Part shown: positions 3,882 to 55,986 of the stretch, one piece after another
Layout of the letters: every line of letters starts with the position of its first letter
How positions within the stretch are numbered: the stretch's first letter is position 1
Assembly (NCBI GenBank): GCA_030054135.1
Contig: JASGCN010000002.1
Span: forward strand, 21,484 to 85,483
Length of the DNA stretch: 64,000 nt
Direction: 5' to 3'
From: Alphaproteobacteria bacterium
GTDB taxonomy: Bacteria > Patescibacteriota > Minisyncoccia > Phycocordibacterales > JABAAK01
The notes under the pieces: model-generated
What the model saw: the letters and a program-made list of their open reading frames with translations, nothing else
Told to the model about the DNA's origin: nothing
The model's database searches: none
Made by a program: the position numbers and the translations under genes

Positions 3882-4310
3882 ATGAACAAAAAATTATATG
3901 TCGGTGGTCTTGCGTGGGCAACTACTGACGAGTCATTACAAGCTTACTTTGCATCAGCAGGAGAAGTTGCTTCTGCTCGTGTAATTCGTGAACATGGGAC
4001 TAATCGTTCACGAGGATTTGGTTTTGTGGAAATGGCCGATGAGGCTGGCGCACAAAAAGCAATTGACACACTTAACAACACAGAACTTGATGGGCGCGCT
4101 ATTTCAGTTAATGAAGCTCGTCCTGAAGATCCTAATCGATCACAAGGTGGTGGTGGAGGCGGATACCGAGGCGGTGGCGGAGGTGGATATCGAGGCGGTG
4201 GCGGAAGCTACGGCGGAGGTTCACGCGGAGGCTACGGCGGAGGTTCACGCGGAAGCTACGGCGGAGGTGGCAATCGTTACGAAAACAAATCATCTAACGG
4301 AGGGTACTAA
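3882..4310 (+). CDS. Glycine-rich RNA-binding protein with RRM domain
   Basis: KLYVGGLAW...RGFGFVEM RNP2/RNP1 motifs; C-terminal GGGGGYRGGGGG repeats. Confidence 0.85.
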   Translation: MNKKLYVGGLAWATTDESLQAYFASAGEVASARVIREHGTNRSRGFGFVEMADEAGAQKAIDTLNNTELDGRAISVNEARPEDPNRSQGGGGGGYRGGGGGGYRGGGGSYGGGSRGGYGGGSRGSYGGGGNRYENKSSNGGY

Positions 4311-4336
4311 TAATAGTATTTGTTAGAGGTTTAGAA

Positions 4337-4378
4337 AAACAAACGCGCGGAAAGAATCTATTCTTTTCCGCGCGTTTG
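4337..4378 (+). terminator. Rho-independent terminator (AAACGCGCGGAAAGAAT...ATTCTTTTCCGCGCGTTT)
   Basis: Long perfect inverted repeat downstream of RRM gene. Confidence 0.55.
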
Positions 4379-4392
4379 TGCTATCATGGCAT

Positions 4393-4848
4393 ATGAACGA
4401 TTGGAAACAATTTACTGAAGAACAAAAAAAACAAAAACTTGCAGAAATGGATTCAGACACAATTGATGTTACACAACACGCGGGAACAGAAGCTCCATAT
4501 TCTCACCCATTGGATTCACATTATGAAAAAGGTATTTATGTTGATATTATTTCAGGAGAACCTCTTTTTTCATCAACGGATAAATTTAATAGTGGGTGTG
4601 GATGGCCTGCGTTTTCAAAACCAATTAATAAGGCAATGGTAAAGGCTATTAATGATACATCACACGGTATGCGACGCATAGAAGTGCGAAGTTCTGTTGC
4701 TGGTTCTCATTTGGGGCATGTGTTTGAAGACGGCCCTGAAGAATCAGGAGGGCTTCGATATTGTATCAACGGAACATCTCTTCGTTTTGTAAAATTTGAA
4801 GATATGGAGAAAGAAGGATACGGAGAGTATAAACAATTCGTTTCATAA
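4393..4848 (+). CDS. msrB: Peptide-methionine (R)-S-oxide reductase MsrB
   Basis: [27 protein letters not shown] conserved SelR motifs. Confidence 0.85.
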
Positions 4849-12980: not shown

Positions 12981-15923
<2,943 letters not shown>

Positions 15924-16044
15924 AAATGAAAGAACATAACACATGAAAGCAAATAACAACACAATTATTTTATAGATACAATGTGAAGAAAGTTGCCTTT
16001 GCTATTGAATTGTCATATACTGAAAGAGGATACTTAGTATTTAA

Positions 16045-16152
16045 CTTTGGTGATATACTCGTGGAGGTAACACCCGTTCCCATTCCGAATACGGCAGTGA
16101 AGGGCCACAGAGGTGATGATACTCGAAAGGGGAAAGTAGCTCGTCGCCAAAG
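16045..16152 (+). rRNA. rrf: 5S ribosomal RNA
   Basis: CACCCGTTCCCATTCCGAATACGG core; terminal helix CTTTGGTG...CGCCAAAG. Confidence 0.8.
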
Positions 16153-39155: not shown

Positions 39156-39370
39156 GTATCTACTACAAGGGTACTCGCACCCAGTTAGTGTATGCACTAA
39201 TTAAAACCTTTTTTAAGGGCGAAATTCACTTGTATTTGCTCTTTAACCAGTATTGATAGAATAATAATCTACAAGAAAAAAAGAAAGTGGTAATCGTATA
39301 TTTACTTTTACCCCGATCTTTCCTTTTGATTTGAAATTAAAGTGATTTGATGATAACAAAAAAAATATAT

Positions 39371-40828
<1,458 letters not shown>

Positions 40829-41023
40829 CTTTTGAGCAATCTGTAATAAGATTGTTTGGTCAAATGTCTTTACTTTATGTAAAGACAAGATAATAACACA
40901 ACATCTCTAAAGAGTGTTCGGTATAGCCCATACACGATAGGGTAGGAAAGAACGGGGTAAAAGTAAGTAGACGATATCATAGATTATTTTTTCTATACAA
41001 TATTGGATAACGCGAAACAAAAA

Positions 41024-41050
41024 ATAACCGCAATATTGCGGTTATTTTTT
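41024..41050 (+). terminator. Rho-independent terminator downstream of 16S (ATAACCGCAATATTGCGGTTAT + T6)
   Basis: Hairpin plus T run. Confidence 0.55.
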
Positions 41051-41063
41051 GTTTCAACACATT

Positions 41064-41216
41064 TTTTATCAAAAAAACAGAGAAGTTGTTATTTCTCTAT
41101 TTTTATGTTTTAATATAATCAGAGCTATATATAAAAAGTAAAAAAAAGAATAGACAATAGTGTCTCTTTCTTGTTTTTTTATTTTGGTCATCAACGATCA
41201 CATATAGTTAGGATCT
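41064..41216 (+). repeat. Conserved ~150-bp leader element copy 1 (promoter TTTTAATATAATCAGAGCTATATA + short terminator-like hairpin + T run) upstream of small membrane-protein gene
   Basis: Near-identical to 41860-42004; partially conserved at 54897-54999. Confidence 0.6.
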
Positions 41217-41789
41217 ATGTCAAAAATATTGTTTTTTTTGTTCGGGTTAATTTTTATTAGTATACTGTTTACGGTATACGCCAACTTTGATAAGATAATA
41301 AATAGCGGAAATCCAGGTGTAAATTTATTAATTTACATGATTATTGGAATAATTGCATGGGTATTCACTTATTTGTTTTTCAAATTTGCTTTTAAAAGTA
41401 AACAGTCCAATGAAGACTCTGAATCAACATTTTTCTTCGAATTAGGAAAAATGTTAAATTCAAGTGAGGGAGAATGCAACGGCACCTCTTTTGTTTTTGC
41501 TTTACTGTTTATATCAATTTCTGTCATATTTTATTATGACTTAACAGAAGATTGGATAGAAATTTACAAAACGAGTTTTTGGGGAGTGTATGTTGTTATA
41601 TTACTCATAACCGTTACGCTCTCAATTGTTTATTTAAATGTAGGTTATAAAAGGTCTACATTTAAAAAAGAATTTTTTGAAATGTTTTTTGGAACAAATC
41701 ATCAAAAAACAACAATTGCAAATGGTGGTATTCTATCATCTATTAAAAAATTAATAGAGTACATTGATTCATTTGCAAAATATTTATAA
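41217..41789 (+). CDS. Hypothetical polytopic membrane protein (190 aa)
   Basis: ORF track. Confidence 0.5.
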   Translation: MSKILFFLFGLIFISILFTVYANFDKIINSGNPGVNLLIYMIIGIIAWVFTYLFFKFAFKSKQSNEDSESTFFFELGKMLNSSEGECNGTSFVFALLFISISVIFYYDLTEDWIEIYKTSFWGVYVVILLITVTLSIVYLNVGYKRSTFKKEFFEMFFGTNHQKTTIANGGILSSIKKLIEYIDSFAKYL

Positions 41790-41796
41790 TGTAAAA

Positions 41797-41826
41797 AACC
41801 AGAACAGTGTGTTCTGGTTTTTTTTA
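41797..41826 (+). terminator. Rho-independent terminator (AACCAGAACA-GTGT-GTTCTGGTT + T8)
   Basis: Hairpin plus T run. Confidence 0.6.
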
Positions 41827-41859
41827 GTTTCAAACCAAATTTTTATAAATTGCGTTCTT

Positions 41860-42004
41860 TTTTATCAAAAAAACAGAGAAGTTGTTATTTTTCTATTTTT
41901 ATGTTTTAATATAATCAGAGCTATATATAAAAAGTAAAAAAAAAGAATAGACAATGGTGTCTCTTTCTTGTTTTTTTATTTGGCCACCAAGGGCTTATAT
42001 AGAT
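41860..42004 (+). repeat. Conserved leader element copy 2, ending in GGCCACCAAGGGCT box
   Basis: ~95% identical to copy 1 over ~130 bp. Confidence 0.6.
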
Positions 42005-42523
42005 ATGAAAATGAAAAAATTCCTTTATATAGTATTTTTTGTAACCACAGTATATCTCGCATTTTCTTTAATAGTTAACTGGTTGGATAATACGGGTACA
42101 ATATTATTTGATATAGGAGTATTGATAGTGTCTGCAATACTCACCAGAATTTTGTATGCAGCAACTATTGTTGCAAGCATTCAAGATTCAATATCAAATA
42201 TGATATTTATTAATATCATAAAAATATTAAAAACACCGCAATTTAAAGAATCTGTTTTTTGGACATACACAGATGAACAAAAAAAAATAATCTGCAACAA
42301 TATAGGAGAACTTGTGCATAAAAAAACAATTCTTGTAATTGATGATATGTTACAAAATTCTAAAGAAATGAAAGAAAAATTTCGTTCACTCATTGAAAAA
42401 AATGATGATAAAAAAATTCTTCATTTTTTTCAAAATGATATGTTGGATTTTTCAAAAGGGTCTTTCATATTCGATAATTTTTTAGAAGAATTAATTACAA
42501 ATACTATTTCAAAGTATTTGTAA
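42005..42523 (+). CDS. Hypothetical membrane protein (start at MKMKKF)
   Basis: ORF track 41954..42523, upstream part overlaps conserved leader so start trimmed. Confidence 0.45.
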   Translation: MKMKKFLYIVFFVTTVYLAFSLIVNWLDNTGTILFDIGVLIVSAILTRILYAATIVASIQDSISNMIFINIIKILKTPQFKESVFWTYTDEQKKIICNNIGELVHKKTILVIDDMLQNSKEMKEKFRSLIEKNDDKKILHFFQNDMLDFSKGSFIFDNFLEELITNTISKYL

Positions 42524-42532
42524 CAAAGACCA

Positions 42533-42568
42533 AACAACCAGAAAAACATATTTTCTGGTTGTTTTTTT
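42533..42568 (+). terminator. Rho-independent terminator (AAACAACCAGAAAA-CATA-TTTTCTGGTTGTTT + T)
   Basis: Hairpin plus T run. Confidence 0.6.
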
Positions 42569-42618
42569 GTGTCAAAAGTAATATTGTGTACACAACAATA
42601 TAGAAACAAATCAAGTGC

Positions 42619-44416: not shown

Positions 44417-44476
44417 ATACAACATGTGCAGAGTAAACACGCTATACTACAAGTGATACAAGATTGATGTAGATAT

Positions 44477-44788
44477 ATGAAAGATATTACCTATTTAGGA
44501 GAAAGCAATGCACGTGGAGAACGTATTCGTTTTGGCATAAAAGAAGAAGATCGTGCACGACACATGTATATTATTGGGCAAACTGGTACAGGTAAATCAA
44601 CGCTCATCGAAAACATGGTGATACAAGATATCGTTAATGGAAAAGGATGCATTTGTCAAAAAAATTCTTCTTATCGATCTTTCAAAAGGGACCATAGGGG
44701 AAACAAATGCAAAAATGTTAGGAGTATTGTTTACCACGAAAGTGTATCTTGCTGCACTTTCTCGTGCAGATGTATCTACCAAGAATAA
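44477..44788 (+). pseudogene. Internally deleted, 3'-truncated duplicate of the P-loop ATPase gene at 46826 (first ~180 coding nt identical, then junction to a segment ~47518-47640 with 1-bp indel)
   Basis: 44436-44656 identical to 46785-47005 (including 40 bp upstream of ATG); 44657-44782 ~95% identical to 47518-47640. Confidence 0.7.
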
Positions 44789-46575: not shown

Positions 46576-46825
46576 ATATGGTGTAGTATATCATTCTCAC
46601 AAAATGTGGGTGCATTGAGTGCGGAACAAAAAAATAACAATTAAGCAACTATCATGACTTACATATTATAATGATATTGGAATTTCTTCTGTCGCACCAC
46701 CACAACGCATATAGTAGTGTTACCCCGTGCGAGTGTTTAGACACTTTCAGCGATATAAGTAGATTTTATAGATAATAATGATACAACACGCTATACTACA
46801 AGTGATACAAGATTGATGTAGATAT

Positions 46826-48790
46826 ATGAAAGATATTACCTATTTAGGAGAAAGCAATGCACGTGGAGAACGTATTCGTTTTGGCATAAAAGAAGAAGAT
46901 CGTGCACGACACATGTATATTATTGGGCAAACTGGTACAGGTAAATCAACGCTCATCGAAAACATGGTGATACAAGATATCGTTAATGGAAAAGGATGCA
47001 TTTGTATGGATCCACACGGACAAACAGTGGAACAGATTCTTGAATATATTCCAGAGTATCGCTTGAAAGATGTTATTTATTTTGCTCCACACGATCAATC
47101 ATTTCCTATTGGACTCAATATCATGGAAGATGTTGGGTACGATAAACGGCACTTAGTAGTGAGTAGCTTACTTTCTGCATTTGCAAAAATATGGGGAGAA
47201 AATTCATGGTCTGATAGAATGGAAAATATTCTTTCAAATACATTATTAGCGTTGCTTGAATTCCCAAACACAACACTTCTTGATGTTGGGCGTATGTATT
47301 CAAGTAAACAATTTAGAAAAGAAGTGGTAGATAACATAAAAGATCCACAGGTGAAACAATTTTGGACAGAAGAATTTGCAGCGTATACCGAACGATATGC
47401 AGCTGAAGCAACTCCCGCTATTCAAAACAAATTAGGACAGTTCACATCAAACCCAATTATTAGAAACATTGTTGGCCAAGTAGACAGCGCTTTTAATTTT
47501 AGACAAGTGATGGATGATAAAAAAATTCTTCTTATCAATCTTTCAAAGGGAACTATAGGGGAAACAAATGCAAAAATGTTAGGAGTATTGTTTACCACAA
47601 AAGTGTATCTTGCTGCACTTTCTCGTGCAGATGTATCTACTCAAGAGCTTGCAGCACTTCCTCCATGTACCTTTTATGTTGACGAATTTCAATCATTTGC
47701 GAGTTCAACATTTGCAGGTATTTTGTCTGAAGCTCGTAAGTATAAACTACATTTAGTAATTGCACACCAATACATTGATCAACTTGAAGAAGAAGTACGC
47801 AATGCAGTGTTTGGAAACATTCCTACCATTATTGCATTTCGGTTAGGGCCACTTGATGGTGAGTTTATGGAAAGAATATTTTCTCCAGTGTTTGAAGAAA
47901 AAGATATCATAACATTGCCACGATATTCTATGTATTTAACACTCTGCATCGATGGGGCAGGATCGAGACCGTTTTCCGCTCGATCGTTGCCGCCTCCACC
48001 TCTGCCTGTACGCTCTATTCGAAATGAAGTACTATCGTACTCTCGAGAACAGTACACAACACCTCGTGAAGAAGTAGAGGAACGTATTAATGCTCGCCTT
48101 ACGCAATATGCAAAAAATGTACCCCCTCCTCAAAGACCAGTAGCACAAAATAATTTTAATAACCCCACTAATGAAAGAAATTATGGTGTGCACAACAATC
48201 AAAGATCATACATGCAAGCCTCTTCTTCGTATGAATCTAATACTCCTCCCCAAATGCGACAGGTTCCTCCCATGCCCCAACACACTGGGGTTTCAGCCAC
48301 TGTGGGTACAGTCGAATCAGATGCTAACAAAACTATTATGATTCGTTCAAAAGTAGCAAGGCGCGCTACTCGTGTTGGTACTGGTAGACGAGTAGAAGAT
48401 ACAACAGGTGTGAATATAAAAAAAACAACTAGAACACCTCCATTGTCGGATATCCCTCGTGCCACACTGCTTAAAAAAACTACAACTGTTAAAAAGAAGG
48501 AAGTTGCCAAAGCAGAAACCAAAGTATTGGATAATGGTATTGAAACAGTATCGCAAAAAAAACCAATACAAAAGAATATAGTAAAATCACGGGTTAAAAA
48601 AGTATCACCATCAGTGGATATCTCTCCGGTATCTCCCGTACAAGATAAAATATTAACGGAAGTATTAAAAAAATTACAATCTCATCCAGAACATCTAAAA
48701 AAGTCTACGCCATTGTTTGCGCCACCAACAGGGAGAGAAGAAGGATGGGTCTCTCTTAGTGATGTGTTAAAAAAAGAAAACGAACTATAG
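46826..48790 (+). CDS. FtsK/HerA/TraD-superfamily P-loop ATPase (TrwB/VirD4-like nucleotide-binding domain), soluble, with ~250-aa Pro-rich disordered C-terminal tail
   Basis: Walker A IIGQTGTGKST at residue ~35 followed by DPHGQ; Walker B-like CTFYVDEFQSFAS; KYKLHLVIAHQ; low-complexity tail. Confidence 0.5.
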   Translation: MKDITYLGESNARGERIRFGIKEEDRARHMYIIGQTGTGKSTLIENMVIQDIVNGKGCICMDPHGQTVEQILEYIPEYRLKDVIYFAPHDQSFPIGLNIMEDVGYDKRHLVVSSLLSAFAKIWGENSWSDRMENILSNTLLALLEFPNTTLLDVGRMYSSKQFRKEVVDNIKDPQVKQFWTEEFAAYTERYAAEATPAIQNKLGQFTSNPIIRNIVGQVDSAFNFRQVMDDKKILLINLSKGTIGETNAKMLGVLFTTKVYLAALSRADVSTQELAALPPCTFYVDEFQSFASSTFAGILSEARKYKLHLVIAHQYIDQLEEEVRNAVFGNIPTIIAFRLGPLDGEFMERIFSPVFEEKDIITLPRYSMYLTLCIDGAGSRPFSARSLPPPPLPVRSIRNEVLSYSREQYTTPREEVEERINARLTQYAKNVPPPQRPVAQNNFNNPTNERNYGVHNNQRSYMQASSSYESNTPPQMRQVPPMPQHTGVSATVGTVESDANKTIMIRSKVARRATRVGTGRRVEDTTGVNIKKTTRTPPLSDIPRATLLKKTTTVKKKEVAKAETKVLDNGIETVSQKKPIQKNIVKSRVKKVSPSVDISPVSPVQDKILTEVLKKLQSHPEHLKKSTPLFAPPTGREEGWVSLSDVLKKENEL

Positions 48791-54856: not shown

Positions 54857-54896
54857 CTGAGCATATACAGGATTTGACATTTTAAATATTGTGTGG

Positions 54897-54999
54897 TTTA
54901 ATATAACTAGAGCTATACAAAAGAAATAAAAAAATAAAAAGGCAATAATGCCTTTTTATTGATTTTTTATTTGGCCACCAAGGGCTGTATAGCGTTGAT
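54897..54999 (+). repeat. Conserved leader element copy 3 (TTAATATAACTAGAGCTATACA promoter-like box, AAAAAGGCAATAATGCCTTTTT hairpin, GGCCACCAAGGGCT box)
   Basis: Shared boxes with copies at 41064 and 41860. Confidence 0.5.
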
Positions 55000-55629
55000 A
55001 TGAAATTTCTTAGTGTATTATTTATTTTATTTTTAAGCCCAACATGGGCTAATAATTTTTCAGTATCCTTGAAAGAGGATATCTCAGATGCAACCCGGGT
55101 GCCCGGTTTGCAAAAGATAACATTTACAAATGGCATGGTTGCACCATGCCATATAAATGGGTTTGCGCGGTGTTACCCAGCGATTTCGCTGAGTGACAAT
55201 GTGTTAATCGAAAAATTTAGAAAATATGGCACAGGCTCCACCAACGCCGCTGAGTATTACTCAGCCTTGATTGGGGGAACCCCACTCAATGCAGCCGGCC
55301 TTGCTGGTTGCGTTGAGACAAGGGGCGAGGTCTCGGCTTGGGACAACTCTCTCATTGAGACATTGTACAATTCAACCCGGTTAAAAATAACATGCCCTGT
55401 AGAGGCATCTGCGCCTCTACAAAAACCCAAAAAGAAAAAAAAATCTTTTTGGGTTCAAAACAGGGATTGGCTAGTGCCGGTAGCGGCACTCTCCATCGGG
55501 TTAGGAGTTGGGCTCACCGCTAAGGTGAGTTCAACCGAAATTTCGCTTGAGGTCCAGGATGGACCTGAAGCGATTAAAGTCAGCGCAGGGAGCGCTGATC
55601 TTACAATTGACTATTCGGTAGATTTTTAA
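55000..55629 (+). CDS. Hypothetical secreted protein (209 aa) with signal peptide
   Basis: ORF track; N-term MKFLSVLFILFLSPTWA. Confidence 0.5.
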   Translation: MKFLSVLFILFLSPTWANNFSVSLKEDISDATRVPGLQKITFTNGMVAPCHINGFARCYPAISLSDNVLIEKFRKYGTGSTNAAEYYSALIGGTPLNAAGLAGCVETRGEVSAWDNSLIETLYNSTRLKITCPVEASAPLQKPKKKKKSFWVQNRDWLVPVAALSIGLGVGLTAKVSSTEISLEVQDGPEAIKVSAGSADLTIDYSVDF

Positions 55630-55688: not shown

Positions 55689-55788
55689 TTGACAAAATGC
55701 ACAAGAATTAGTATTATCAAATATCTACCAAGGGCTACCCTCCTGCCCTTGGTAGAGGCCAAGAATTAATAGTTCTTGGCCTTTTTTT
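55689..55788 (+). ncRNA. Candidate small RNA: TTGACA-type promoter, then 11-bp-stem hairpin with loop UACCCUCCU, then terminator hairpin AGGCCAAGAA-TTAATA-GTTCTTGGCC + T7
   Basis: Promoter-hairpin-terminator unit with no ORF; hairpin CTACCAAGGGC/GCCCTTGGTAG perfect. Confidence 0.3.
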
Positions 55789-55838
55789 GTGTCATATTCA
55801 ACTTGACACACATAAGTTGAATGGATATATTAGATTTA

Positions 55839-55870
55839 GAAATATCAATGGAGCGCTCCATTGATATTTC
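55839..55870. promoter_or_regulatory. Perfect 32-bp palindrome GAAATATCAATGGAGC|GCTCCATTGATATTTC followed by C8 tract
   Basis: Read directly; 16-bp arms with no mismatch. Confidence 0.5.
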
Positions 55871-55942
55871 CCCCCCCGACCGTTTAAATCTATATATACA
55901 GAAAAAGTACAAAAAAAAATGTGATCGGGGACTAAATTTATT

Positions 55943-55986
55943 GATCCTCAATTCGAAAAGAATTGAGGATTTTTTATGTCCCATTT
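55943..55986 (+). terminator. Rho-independent terminator-like hairpin (GATCCTCAATTC-GAAAA-GAATTGAGGAT + T5)
   Basis: 11-12 bp stem plus T run, ~25 nt upstream of tgt. Confidence 0.5.

Follow-up and report, generated by a model that had tools for sequence, protein, structure and literature searches.

What is the repeated sequence that precedes three small genes in this DNA, and does it act as an attenuator or riboswitch-like leader, as an initial annotation proposed? The window considered here, that is, the whole stretch of 64,000 nucleotides that was analyzed, belongs to a metagenome-assembled genome deposited at NCBI under the label "Alphaproteobacteria bacterium" (QM526_ tags). The same genome is also present in the Logan assemblies of SRR23378604/5, where its contigs are fragmented and hold ~3 kb of extra sequence. 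We found that the repeat is best explained as a portable cassette of promoter and structured 5′-UTR that was copied before three lineage-specific envelope-protein genes, a reading in which we place about as much trust as doubt.

An Upstream Repeat in Three Copies

The three leader copies were confirmed at the positions where they had first been noticed. They lie on the + strand at 41062-41216 (copy A, upstream of gene A), 41858-42004 (copy B, upstream of gene B), and 54874-54999 (copy C, upstream of gene C), which makes three modules per 64 kb, each directly upstream of an ATG and all on the same strand. Copies A and B had been described as ~95% identical over 41064-41216 and 41860-42004, a figure that has to be revised in both directions: over their whole length the two upstream segments are 89% identical (A-C 61%, B-C 66%), while 98-99% identity is confined to the first ~125 nt (41062-41187 vs. 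41858-41984). Within this near-identical tract, the two copies differ by one C/T, one A/G in the hairpin loop, and an A8 versus an A9. Identity collapses directly 3′ of the T-run, and the last ~30 nt before the ATGs are loosely similar. The inverted repeat AGAGAA...TTCTCT, listed as a common feature, is intact in A alone; its second half is TTTTCT in B, and C is without it. Copy C retains three blocks: TTTAATATAA(CT)AGAGCTATA, a hairpin flanked by an A-tract and a T-tract, and finally TTTTTTATTTGGCCACCAAGGGCT. The last of these is an exact match of 24 nt between B and C that spans the U-tract and the box; elsewhere the module is ~66% identical. The layout common to A, B, and C consists of a promoter-like -10 cluster, a helix of A-tract, hairpin, and U-tract, a box, and the ATG.

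The repeat is real, with counts far above the shuffled expectation. When the window was compared with shuffled sequence, TTAATATAAYNAGAGCTATA had 3 exact matches versus 0.11 expected (up to three mismatches allowed) and the degenerate box 3 matches versus 0.30; for ACCAAGGGCT, the 10-mer of the box, 3 exact matches were found in the window versus 0.09 expected. The covariance model of the leader scored 95.4 bits for A, 104.8 bits for B, and 103.7 bits for C, and the next match in the window reached 29.5 bits. This candidate for a fourth copy, at 4324-4402, was rejected, as it is an ordinary terminator followed by TGcTATCAT, the leaderless promoter of msrB. The region upstream of msrB (4308-4393) has the typical intergenic layout, with a stop codon, a strong hairpin terminator (4339-4376), and, 5 nt ahead of the ATG at 4393, the extended -10 TGcTATCAT.

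The upstream neighbors of the copies are the 16S rRNA gene (A), gene A (B), and a pilin-like gene (C). Copy A starts 230 nt past the 16S gene, just after a strong terminator (41014-41055), and copy C recurs identically in a contig of a second sample (L016). The repeat does not fit the MITE or REP type, neither terminal inverted repeats nor flanking duplications being found at the A/B borders.

The Downstream Genes

Gene A (41217-41789, + strand) encodes an orphan multi-pass membrane protein of 190 aa and is closed by a terminator at 41793-41823. Gene B (42005-42523, + strand) encodes an orphan membrane protein of 172 aa, for which the NCBI annotation gives the same length and the same ATG at 42005, and its terminator lies at 42532-42564. 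The product of gene C (55000-55629, + strand) is an orphan of 209 aa with a signal-like N-terminal segment and a C-terminal transmembrane segment. The expectation of small secreted or membrane products was borne out, all three having hydrophobic N-termini or transmembrane segments. No Pfam family was found for any of them. In homology searches, B and C matched only themselves among 5.8 billion proteins, and A matched only itself among 1.84 billion representative (cluster) proteins. Because their GC contents (26.5% for A, 24.3% for B, and 44.9% for C) depart from that of the window (35.9%), the genes look accessory, or else fast-evolving.

Compared with each other, the coding DNAs of A, B, and C gave no blastn match at E ≤ 1e-4, and the proteins gave no significant blastp match (E at least 0.099). 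A segmental duplication that included the genes themselves, the outcome against which the initial annotation had weighed its proposal, is not borne out by these unalignable coding sequences, at least for C versus A and B. The 3′ ends of A and B (41745-41835 and 42478-42575) can be aligned up to ..KYL and the stop codon, the proteins being otherwise unalignable, and the terminators of the two genes are similar (AACCAGAA and TTCTGGTT). A and B may be very old tandem paralogues, and given this possibility, reuse before an unrelated gene rests mainly on C versus A and B.

Promoter-Like Elements in a Leaderless-Type Host

The 3′ tail of the 16S rRNA after helix 45 is GAAUGUAAUUAAC (40817-40829), and a CCUCC anti-Shine-Dalgarno sequence was absent from this tail and from the following 200 nt. 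The 16S gene is short (1465 nt), and the rRNA genes are unlinked, the 23S-5S pair (12982-16152) sitting 23 kb upstream of 16S (39365-40829) on the same strand. A TAnnnT hexamer, often as TGnTATAAT, was found in 29 of 37 genes, ending mostly 5-6 nt upstream of the ATG, and the -35 region of those gene starts holds no information. A leaderless-transcription signature of this kind has been reported for "group C" genomes (PMC6028130). Most genes thus appear leaderless, and the genome looks almost fully so. Relatives at 62-64% TGT identity mix Shine-Dalgarno-led genes (AAGGAG and GGAGG sites) with leaderless ones.

Each copy of the repeat carries a distal -10 cluster of overlapping TTTAAT, TAATAT, and TATAAT hexamers (TATAAC in C) with TGn in front, and 17 nt upstream of TTTAAT stands TTGACA in C and TTGTTA in A and B. 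In copy A (promoter 41062-41119, + strand, 99% identical to that of B and with an A/T-tract block upstream), TTGTTA at 41086-41091 is followed after 17 nt by TGt-TTTAATATAAT, the overlapping hexamers covering 41106-41119; TAATAT and TATAAT satisfy the TAnnnT rule of the genome. In copy B (41858-41915, + strand), TTGTTA occupies 41882-41887 and the overlapping -10 hexamers 41902-41915; in copy C (54874-54907, + strand), TTGACA occupies 54874-54879 and is followed after 17 nt by TGg-TTTAATATAAC at 54894-54907. Applying the genome's own spacing from -10 to start, we infer a 5′ end at (A)GAGCUAUA.

Close to the start codons of genes B and C, no hexamer has both of the informative -10 positions, A2 and T6, so these genes probably depend on the distal promoter and their mRNAs probably carry the leader, which would be unusual in this organism. 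Gene A has TATAGT (the 3′ strand of P1, see below) 8 nt from its ATG, an acceptable -10 box from which it could be transcribed leaderless.

Predicted Fold of the Leader and the Conserved Box

Counted from the putative 5′ end up to the last nucleotide ahead of the ATG, the leaders span 41121-41216 (A), 41917-42004 (B), and 54909-54999 (C), all on the + strand. Their predicted folding energies are -20.8 kcal/mol (z = -2.9) for A, -23.1 kcal/mol (z = -3.9) for B, and -30.3 kcal/mol (z = -5.6) for C. The three individual folds are alike, and the same helices P1, P2, and P3 were recovered by RNAalifold on a hand-corrected alignment.

P2, a helix of ~21 bp built from the A-tract, a G+C tip, and the U-tract, occupies 41136-41184 in A (core 41146-41172, U7 41174-41180), 41932-41981 in B (core 41943-41969, U7 41971-41977), and 54924-54972 in C (12-bp core 54933-54960, U6 54963-54968). 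It contains the short hairpin AGACA-ATAG-TGTCT that had been described for A and B, but the loop ATAG belongs to A alone (ATGG in B, ATAA in C), and the stem is extended to ~21 bp by A- and T-tracts, the former being A8 in A, A9 in B, and A7 in C. In P1, a 5′-terminal GCUAUAY is paired with RUAUAGN, which lies 3-9 nt upstream of the AUG (41124-41130/41202-41208 in A, 41921-41927/41996-42002 in B, 54912-54918/54987-54993 in C), and P3 is a 4-bp mini-hairpin within the box. As to the box itself, said to precede each ATG, it is exact in B (GGCCACCAAGGGCT, 41982-41995) and C (54973-54986), whereas the homologous site in A, at 41186-41199, is the degenerate GGTCATCAACGATC, likewise at P3. The sequence of the box is partly dyad-symmetric (TTGG-N3-CCAA and GCC-N6-GGC).

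Covariation across copies or relatives had been suggested as a check. Each of the three helices has one double compensatory change, and P2 of copy C, in a shifted register, is nevertheless perfectly paired. Moreover, four G.U positions pair on the + strand only, as an RNA of the opposite strand would have C.A mismatches there. This covariation rests on two independent comparisons, since the three copies lie in one metagenome-assembled genome, and no copies were found in relatives. Against shuffles, P1 stands out in C (p = 0.0025) but not in A (p = 0.13) or B (p = 0.20). In the box of A, most of the changes are C>T and G>A transitions, and decay could explain them as well as covariation in P3 does. 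Considering the few comparisons, the P1 values of A and B, and these transitions, we regard P2 as solid and P1 and P3 as tentative.

At 41954, an A>G change in the hairpin loop of B makes an ATG in frame with gene B and leads to a 189-aa ORF-finder call. A leader peptide was rejected, this ATG coming from that single loop change; the leaders contain no leader ORF.

Attenuator or Riboswitch?

The order of promoter, hairpin with U-tract, and ORF on one strand is indeed that of attenuator and riboswitch leaders, and it was on this likeness that such a mechanism had been suggested. Nevertheless, the analysis does not support a classical mechanism of either kind. For the P2 core, -6.3 kcal/mol was calculated in both A and B, and -12.0 kcal/mol in C, versus -15.4 to -24.6 kcal/mol for seven gene-end terminators in the window; among the copies, C alone passed the terminator scan, and it was flagged as terminator-like on both strands. 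The RNA 5′ of the hairpin amounts to merely ~25 nt and is A-rich, which leaves no sensor domain, and no antiterminator or competing helix appeared in the minimum-free-energy or centroid folds of the leaders. Since the box, which is more conserved than any other element of the leader, lies 3′ of the U-tract, it can take no part in a termination decision. No leader matched a family of Rfam 15 at the gathering score, and at E ≤ 10 there were chance-level matches far below the thresholds. Partial termination at P2 is plausible, because the U6-U7 tract begins within 1-2 nt of the stem. A self-cleaving ribozyme or a tRNA-like gene was also considered and dropped, neither Rfam nor ARAGORN making a call. 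The complement of the box was not found in 16S or 23S rRNA at one mismatch or fewer; 16S holds the same-sense AACAAGGGCT alone.

Small-RNA-Like Units beside Gene C

A small-RNA-like unit is located at 55689-55790 (+ strand), with TTGACA-17-TATTAT, a hairpin at 55725-55755, and a strong terminator at 55756-55782 followed by U7. Its predicted fold has -38 kcal/mol (z = -7.8), and no Rfam match to it was found. The hairpin has 11 bp, is G+C-rich, and carries the loop UACCCUCCU, which contains CCUCC. The statement that the box motif recurs in this hairpin proved correct, the third exact ACCAAGGGCT lying in its 5′ arm. Its 3′ arm and the following GGCC are complementary to GGCC-ACCAAGGGC. An antisense action of this RNA (55724-55790) on the box is not supported, since both partners keep their own hairpins in the cofold and the gain is 1-2 kcal/mol from unrelated A/U pairing; the leader was not a top-ranked duplex target of the 55724-55790 unit within the window. 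The 10-mer common to hairpin and box may mark a site for the same protein in both, or may have arisen by chance (p roughly 0.05-0.1).

Directly 3′ of this unit there is a second one (55803-55975), with TTGACA-17-TATATT, a C8 stretch, and its own terminator (55943-55971). It has a perfect hairpin of 14 bp (55839-55870) and a fold with z = -7.2, and the Logan contigs break at this palindrome.

A Proposed Portable Promoter and Leader

We propose that the module was spread by duplication or gene conversion, the A/B tract being recent. RNA polymerase would start ~6-7 nt downstream of the TTTAATATAAT cluster, transcribe a leader of 85-95 nt, and continue into the gene. The leader would fold round P2, the long A-tract/U-tract helix with its small G+C tip, which probably serves as a weak, leaky intrinsic terminator and/or as a stabilizing 5′ structure. 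The whole structure is perhaps closed by the weak P1, which joins the 5′ end to 7 nt upstream of the start codon, and by the 4-bp P3. The invariant box GGCCACCAAGGGCU, between P2 and the start codon, is most likely bound by a trans-acting factor (a protein or an RNA), which would set the translation or stability of the read-through mRNA. In this way, three accessory genes that otherwise have no promoter would obtain a common start and a common control in a host that lacks an anti-Shine-Dalgarno sequence and is mostly leaderless. Of all this, the sequence shows the repeat itself, its promoter-like motifs, the compensatory changes in P2, the unrelated orphan genes, and the leaderless context, while the start site, read-through, P1, P3, the binding of a factor, and its regulatory effect are predictions. 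Our confidence in each of these steps is lower than in the leader reading as a whole.

Other explanations need to be weighed against it. The module could act at the level of DNA, with P2 as a terminator or insulator, a leaderless start from a weak proximal -10 (TATAGT, TATATA, TATAGC; 3-8 nt before the ATG), and the box, then in the spacer/-35 zone, as the operator of a DNA-binding regulator. A terminator hairpin, a -10, 5-6 nt, and the ATG are the usual intergenic order of this genome (msrB, 4339-4393), P2 is the sole terminator candidate after the pilin-like gene upstream of copy C, and both the partial dyad symmetry of the box and the legitimate TATAGT hexamer of copy A agree with such a design. 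But the hexamers of B and C violate A2 and T6, the most informative -10 positions, and a second terminator would be redundant for A and B because the strong terminators at 41014-41055 and 41793-41823 already precede them. Nor would such a design account for a distal promoter that is well formed and conserved, or for the AGAGCTATA block, and the G.U-only pairs favor an RNA of the + strand. We consider this explanation unlikely. That the copies are three paralogous small-RNA genes, each producing from the distal promoter an A-rich RNA of ~55-60 nt ended by P2 and the U-tract, with the downstream gene incidental, seems quite improbable to us. Promoter, A-rich stretch, hairpin, and U-tail are the standard layout of a small RNA, the A/B identity tract stops right after the T-run, and two more such units with 5′-terminal hairpins lie nearby (55689-55790 and 55803-55975). 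Yet the terminator is weak, the B/C conservation runs unbroken from the U-tract into the box, each copy ends 3-9 nt before a same-strand start codon, and genes B and C would be left promoterless.

A neutral origin is conceivable as well: an ordinary promoter duplicated with the old tandem paralogues A and B, homogenized by gene conversion, and on one occasion transferred to C as well, would carry a hairpin and a box without any specific role. In its favor are the alignable 3′ ends of A and B with their similar terminators and the sharply bordered stretch of 98% identity, as is typical of gene conversion; moreover, bacteria commonly have families of putative mobile promoters (PMC3488235). On the other hand, copy C is old (61-66%) and still keeps its hairpin by compensatory changes and its box exactly, and the box 10-mer recurs in the nearby small-RNA-like hairpin; we find a neutral by-product rather improbable. 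The cassette reading, for its part, does not explain by what means ribosomes would translate a leadered mRNA in the absence of Shine-Dalgarno pairing. The leader might itself be a device for expressing leadered mRNAs without an anti-Shine-Dalgarno sequence, an idea to which we give very little credence. Either P1/P3 would be a processing signal, the stack of 7 + 4 bp (like the acceptor and T-arm of a tRNA) being cut to yield a near-leaderless mRNA, or GGCCACCAAGGGCU would recruit the ribosome or a regulator, and the small-RNA-like hairpin with the same 10-mer would be a decoy of the box. If true, either version would represent a novel way of controlling translation initiation.

If the cassette reading holds, a genome-reduced, uncultured bacterium without Shine-Dalgarno initiation pastes a ready-made promoter and leader before new or acquired surface-protein genes. 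It would offer a candidate for a new cis-regulatory RNA together with a small set of co-regulated envelope genes, in a lineage whose gene regulation is almost unknown. At present, it is a three-copy motif of a single genome.

Comparison with Known Systems

The closest parallel is the propagation of putative mobile promoters (Matus-Garcia, Nijveen and van Passel 2012; PMC3488235), which are recognized by upstream fragments (-150 to -50) that align over >50 nt at ≥80%, with downstream and upstream coding sequences that cannot be aligned. These fragments are 97.8% identical over 92 nt for A/B, 79.6% over 54 nt for C/A, and 82.9% over 41 nt for C/B; by this definition the A/B pair qualifies, C/A is borderline, and C/B is too short. 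The coding sequences of A, B, and C do not align, A and B having similar 3′ ends. As in mobile promoters, strongly similar upstream regions stand before unalignable coding sequences in one genome; in contrast, the unit copied here comprises a promoter and a structured leader of ~90 nt with a conserved box, and the host is a leaderless-type bacterium without an anti-Shine-Dalgarno sequence. From attenuator and riboswitch leaders, the module differs in its weak hairpin, in the box that follows the terminator, and in having neither a sensor domain, a leader peptide, an antiterminator, nor an Rfam family.

Stem-loops at the 5′ end stabilize certain mRNAs, as in the ompA 5′ UTR of Escherichia coli and the aprE or ermC leaders of Bacillus subtilis. 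Here too, a helix would lie 0-3 nt from the putative 5′ end of mRNAs for envelope proteins; but the start is placed by prediction, P1 is a weak helix in two of the copies (A and B), and the sequences are unrelated. The phase-variable surface-protein families vlp and vsa of Mycoplasma have conserved 5′ regions with homopolymeric tracts. They resemble our module in that a conserved upstream region with A-/T-tracts (A8, A9, and A7 here) precedes divergent surface-protein genes. Unlike theirs, the tracts here would be in a transcribed leader and paired with each other rather than in the promoter spacer, and the signal peptides are not conserved.

Search for Relatives

The cassette looks lineage-specific, but it has been seen in a single genome. 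A scan of 185,579 species genomes with the exact pattern gave 13 single matches in unrelated taxa, which were judged to be chance; the one match in Patescibacteria was discarded, as it lies inside a lysyl-tRNA synthetase gene. Among JGI metagenomes, ATTTGGCCACCAAGGGCT had 34 matches, all in coding DNA (e.g., dnaJ) of G+C-richer contigs, and viral contigs gave 0 matches in one scan and 31 chance matches in another. The covariance model found nothing in the loci matched by the scans or in the loci of relatives. The nearest relatives by TGT, 62-64% identical and with partly conserved synteny, are without genes A-C, so orthologous leaders could not be located by synteny.

The "Alphaproteobacteria" label of the genome may be wrong. 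Its closest TGT relatives (loci L017 and L019), the tgt-uvrB-uvrA synteny, and the gene content, with pilin-like and T4SS pilin genes and, in the relatives, a split transketolase, look Patescibacteria/CPR-like. The window also contains a direct repeat of 221 nt with 100% identity (44436-44656 and 46785-47005), which duplicates the promoter and the first ~180 nt of a type IV secretion coupling-protein gene. It brackets ~2.1 kb with two genes and may stem from an insertion that produced a long duplication, or from an error of assembly.
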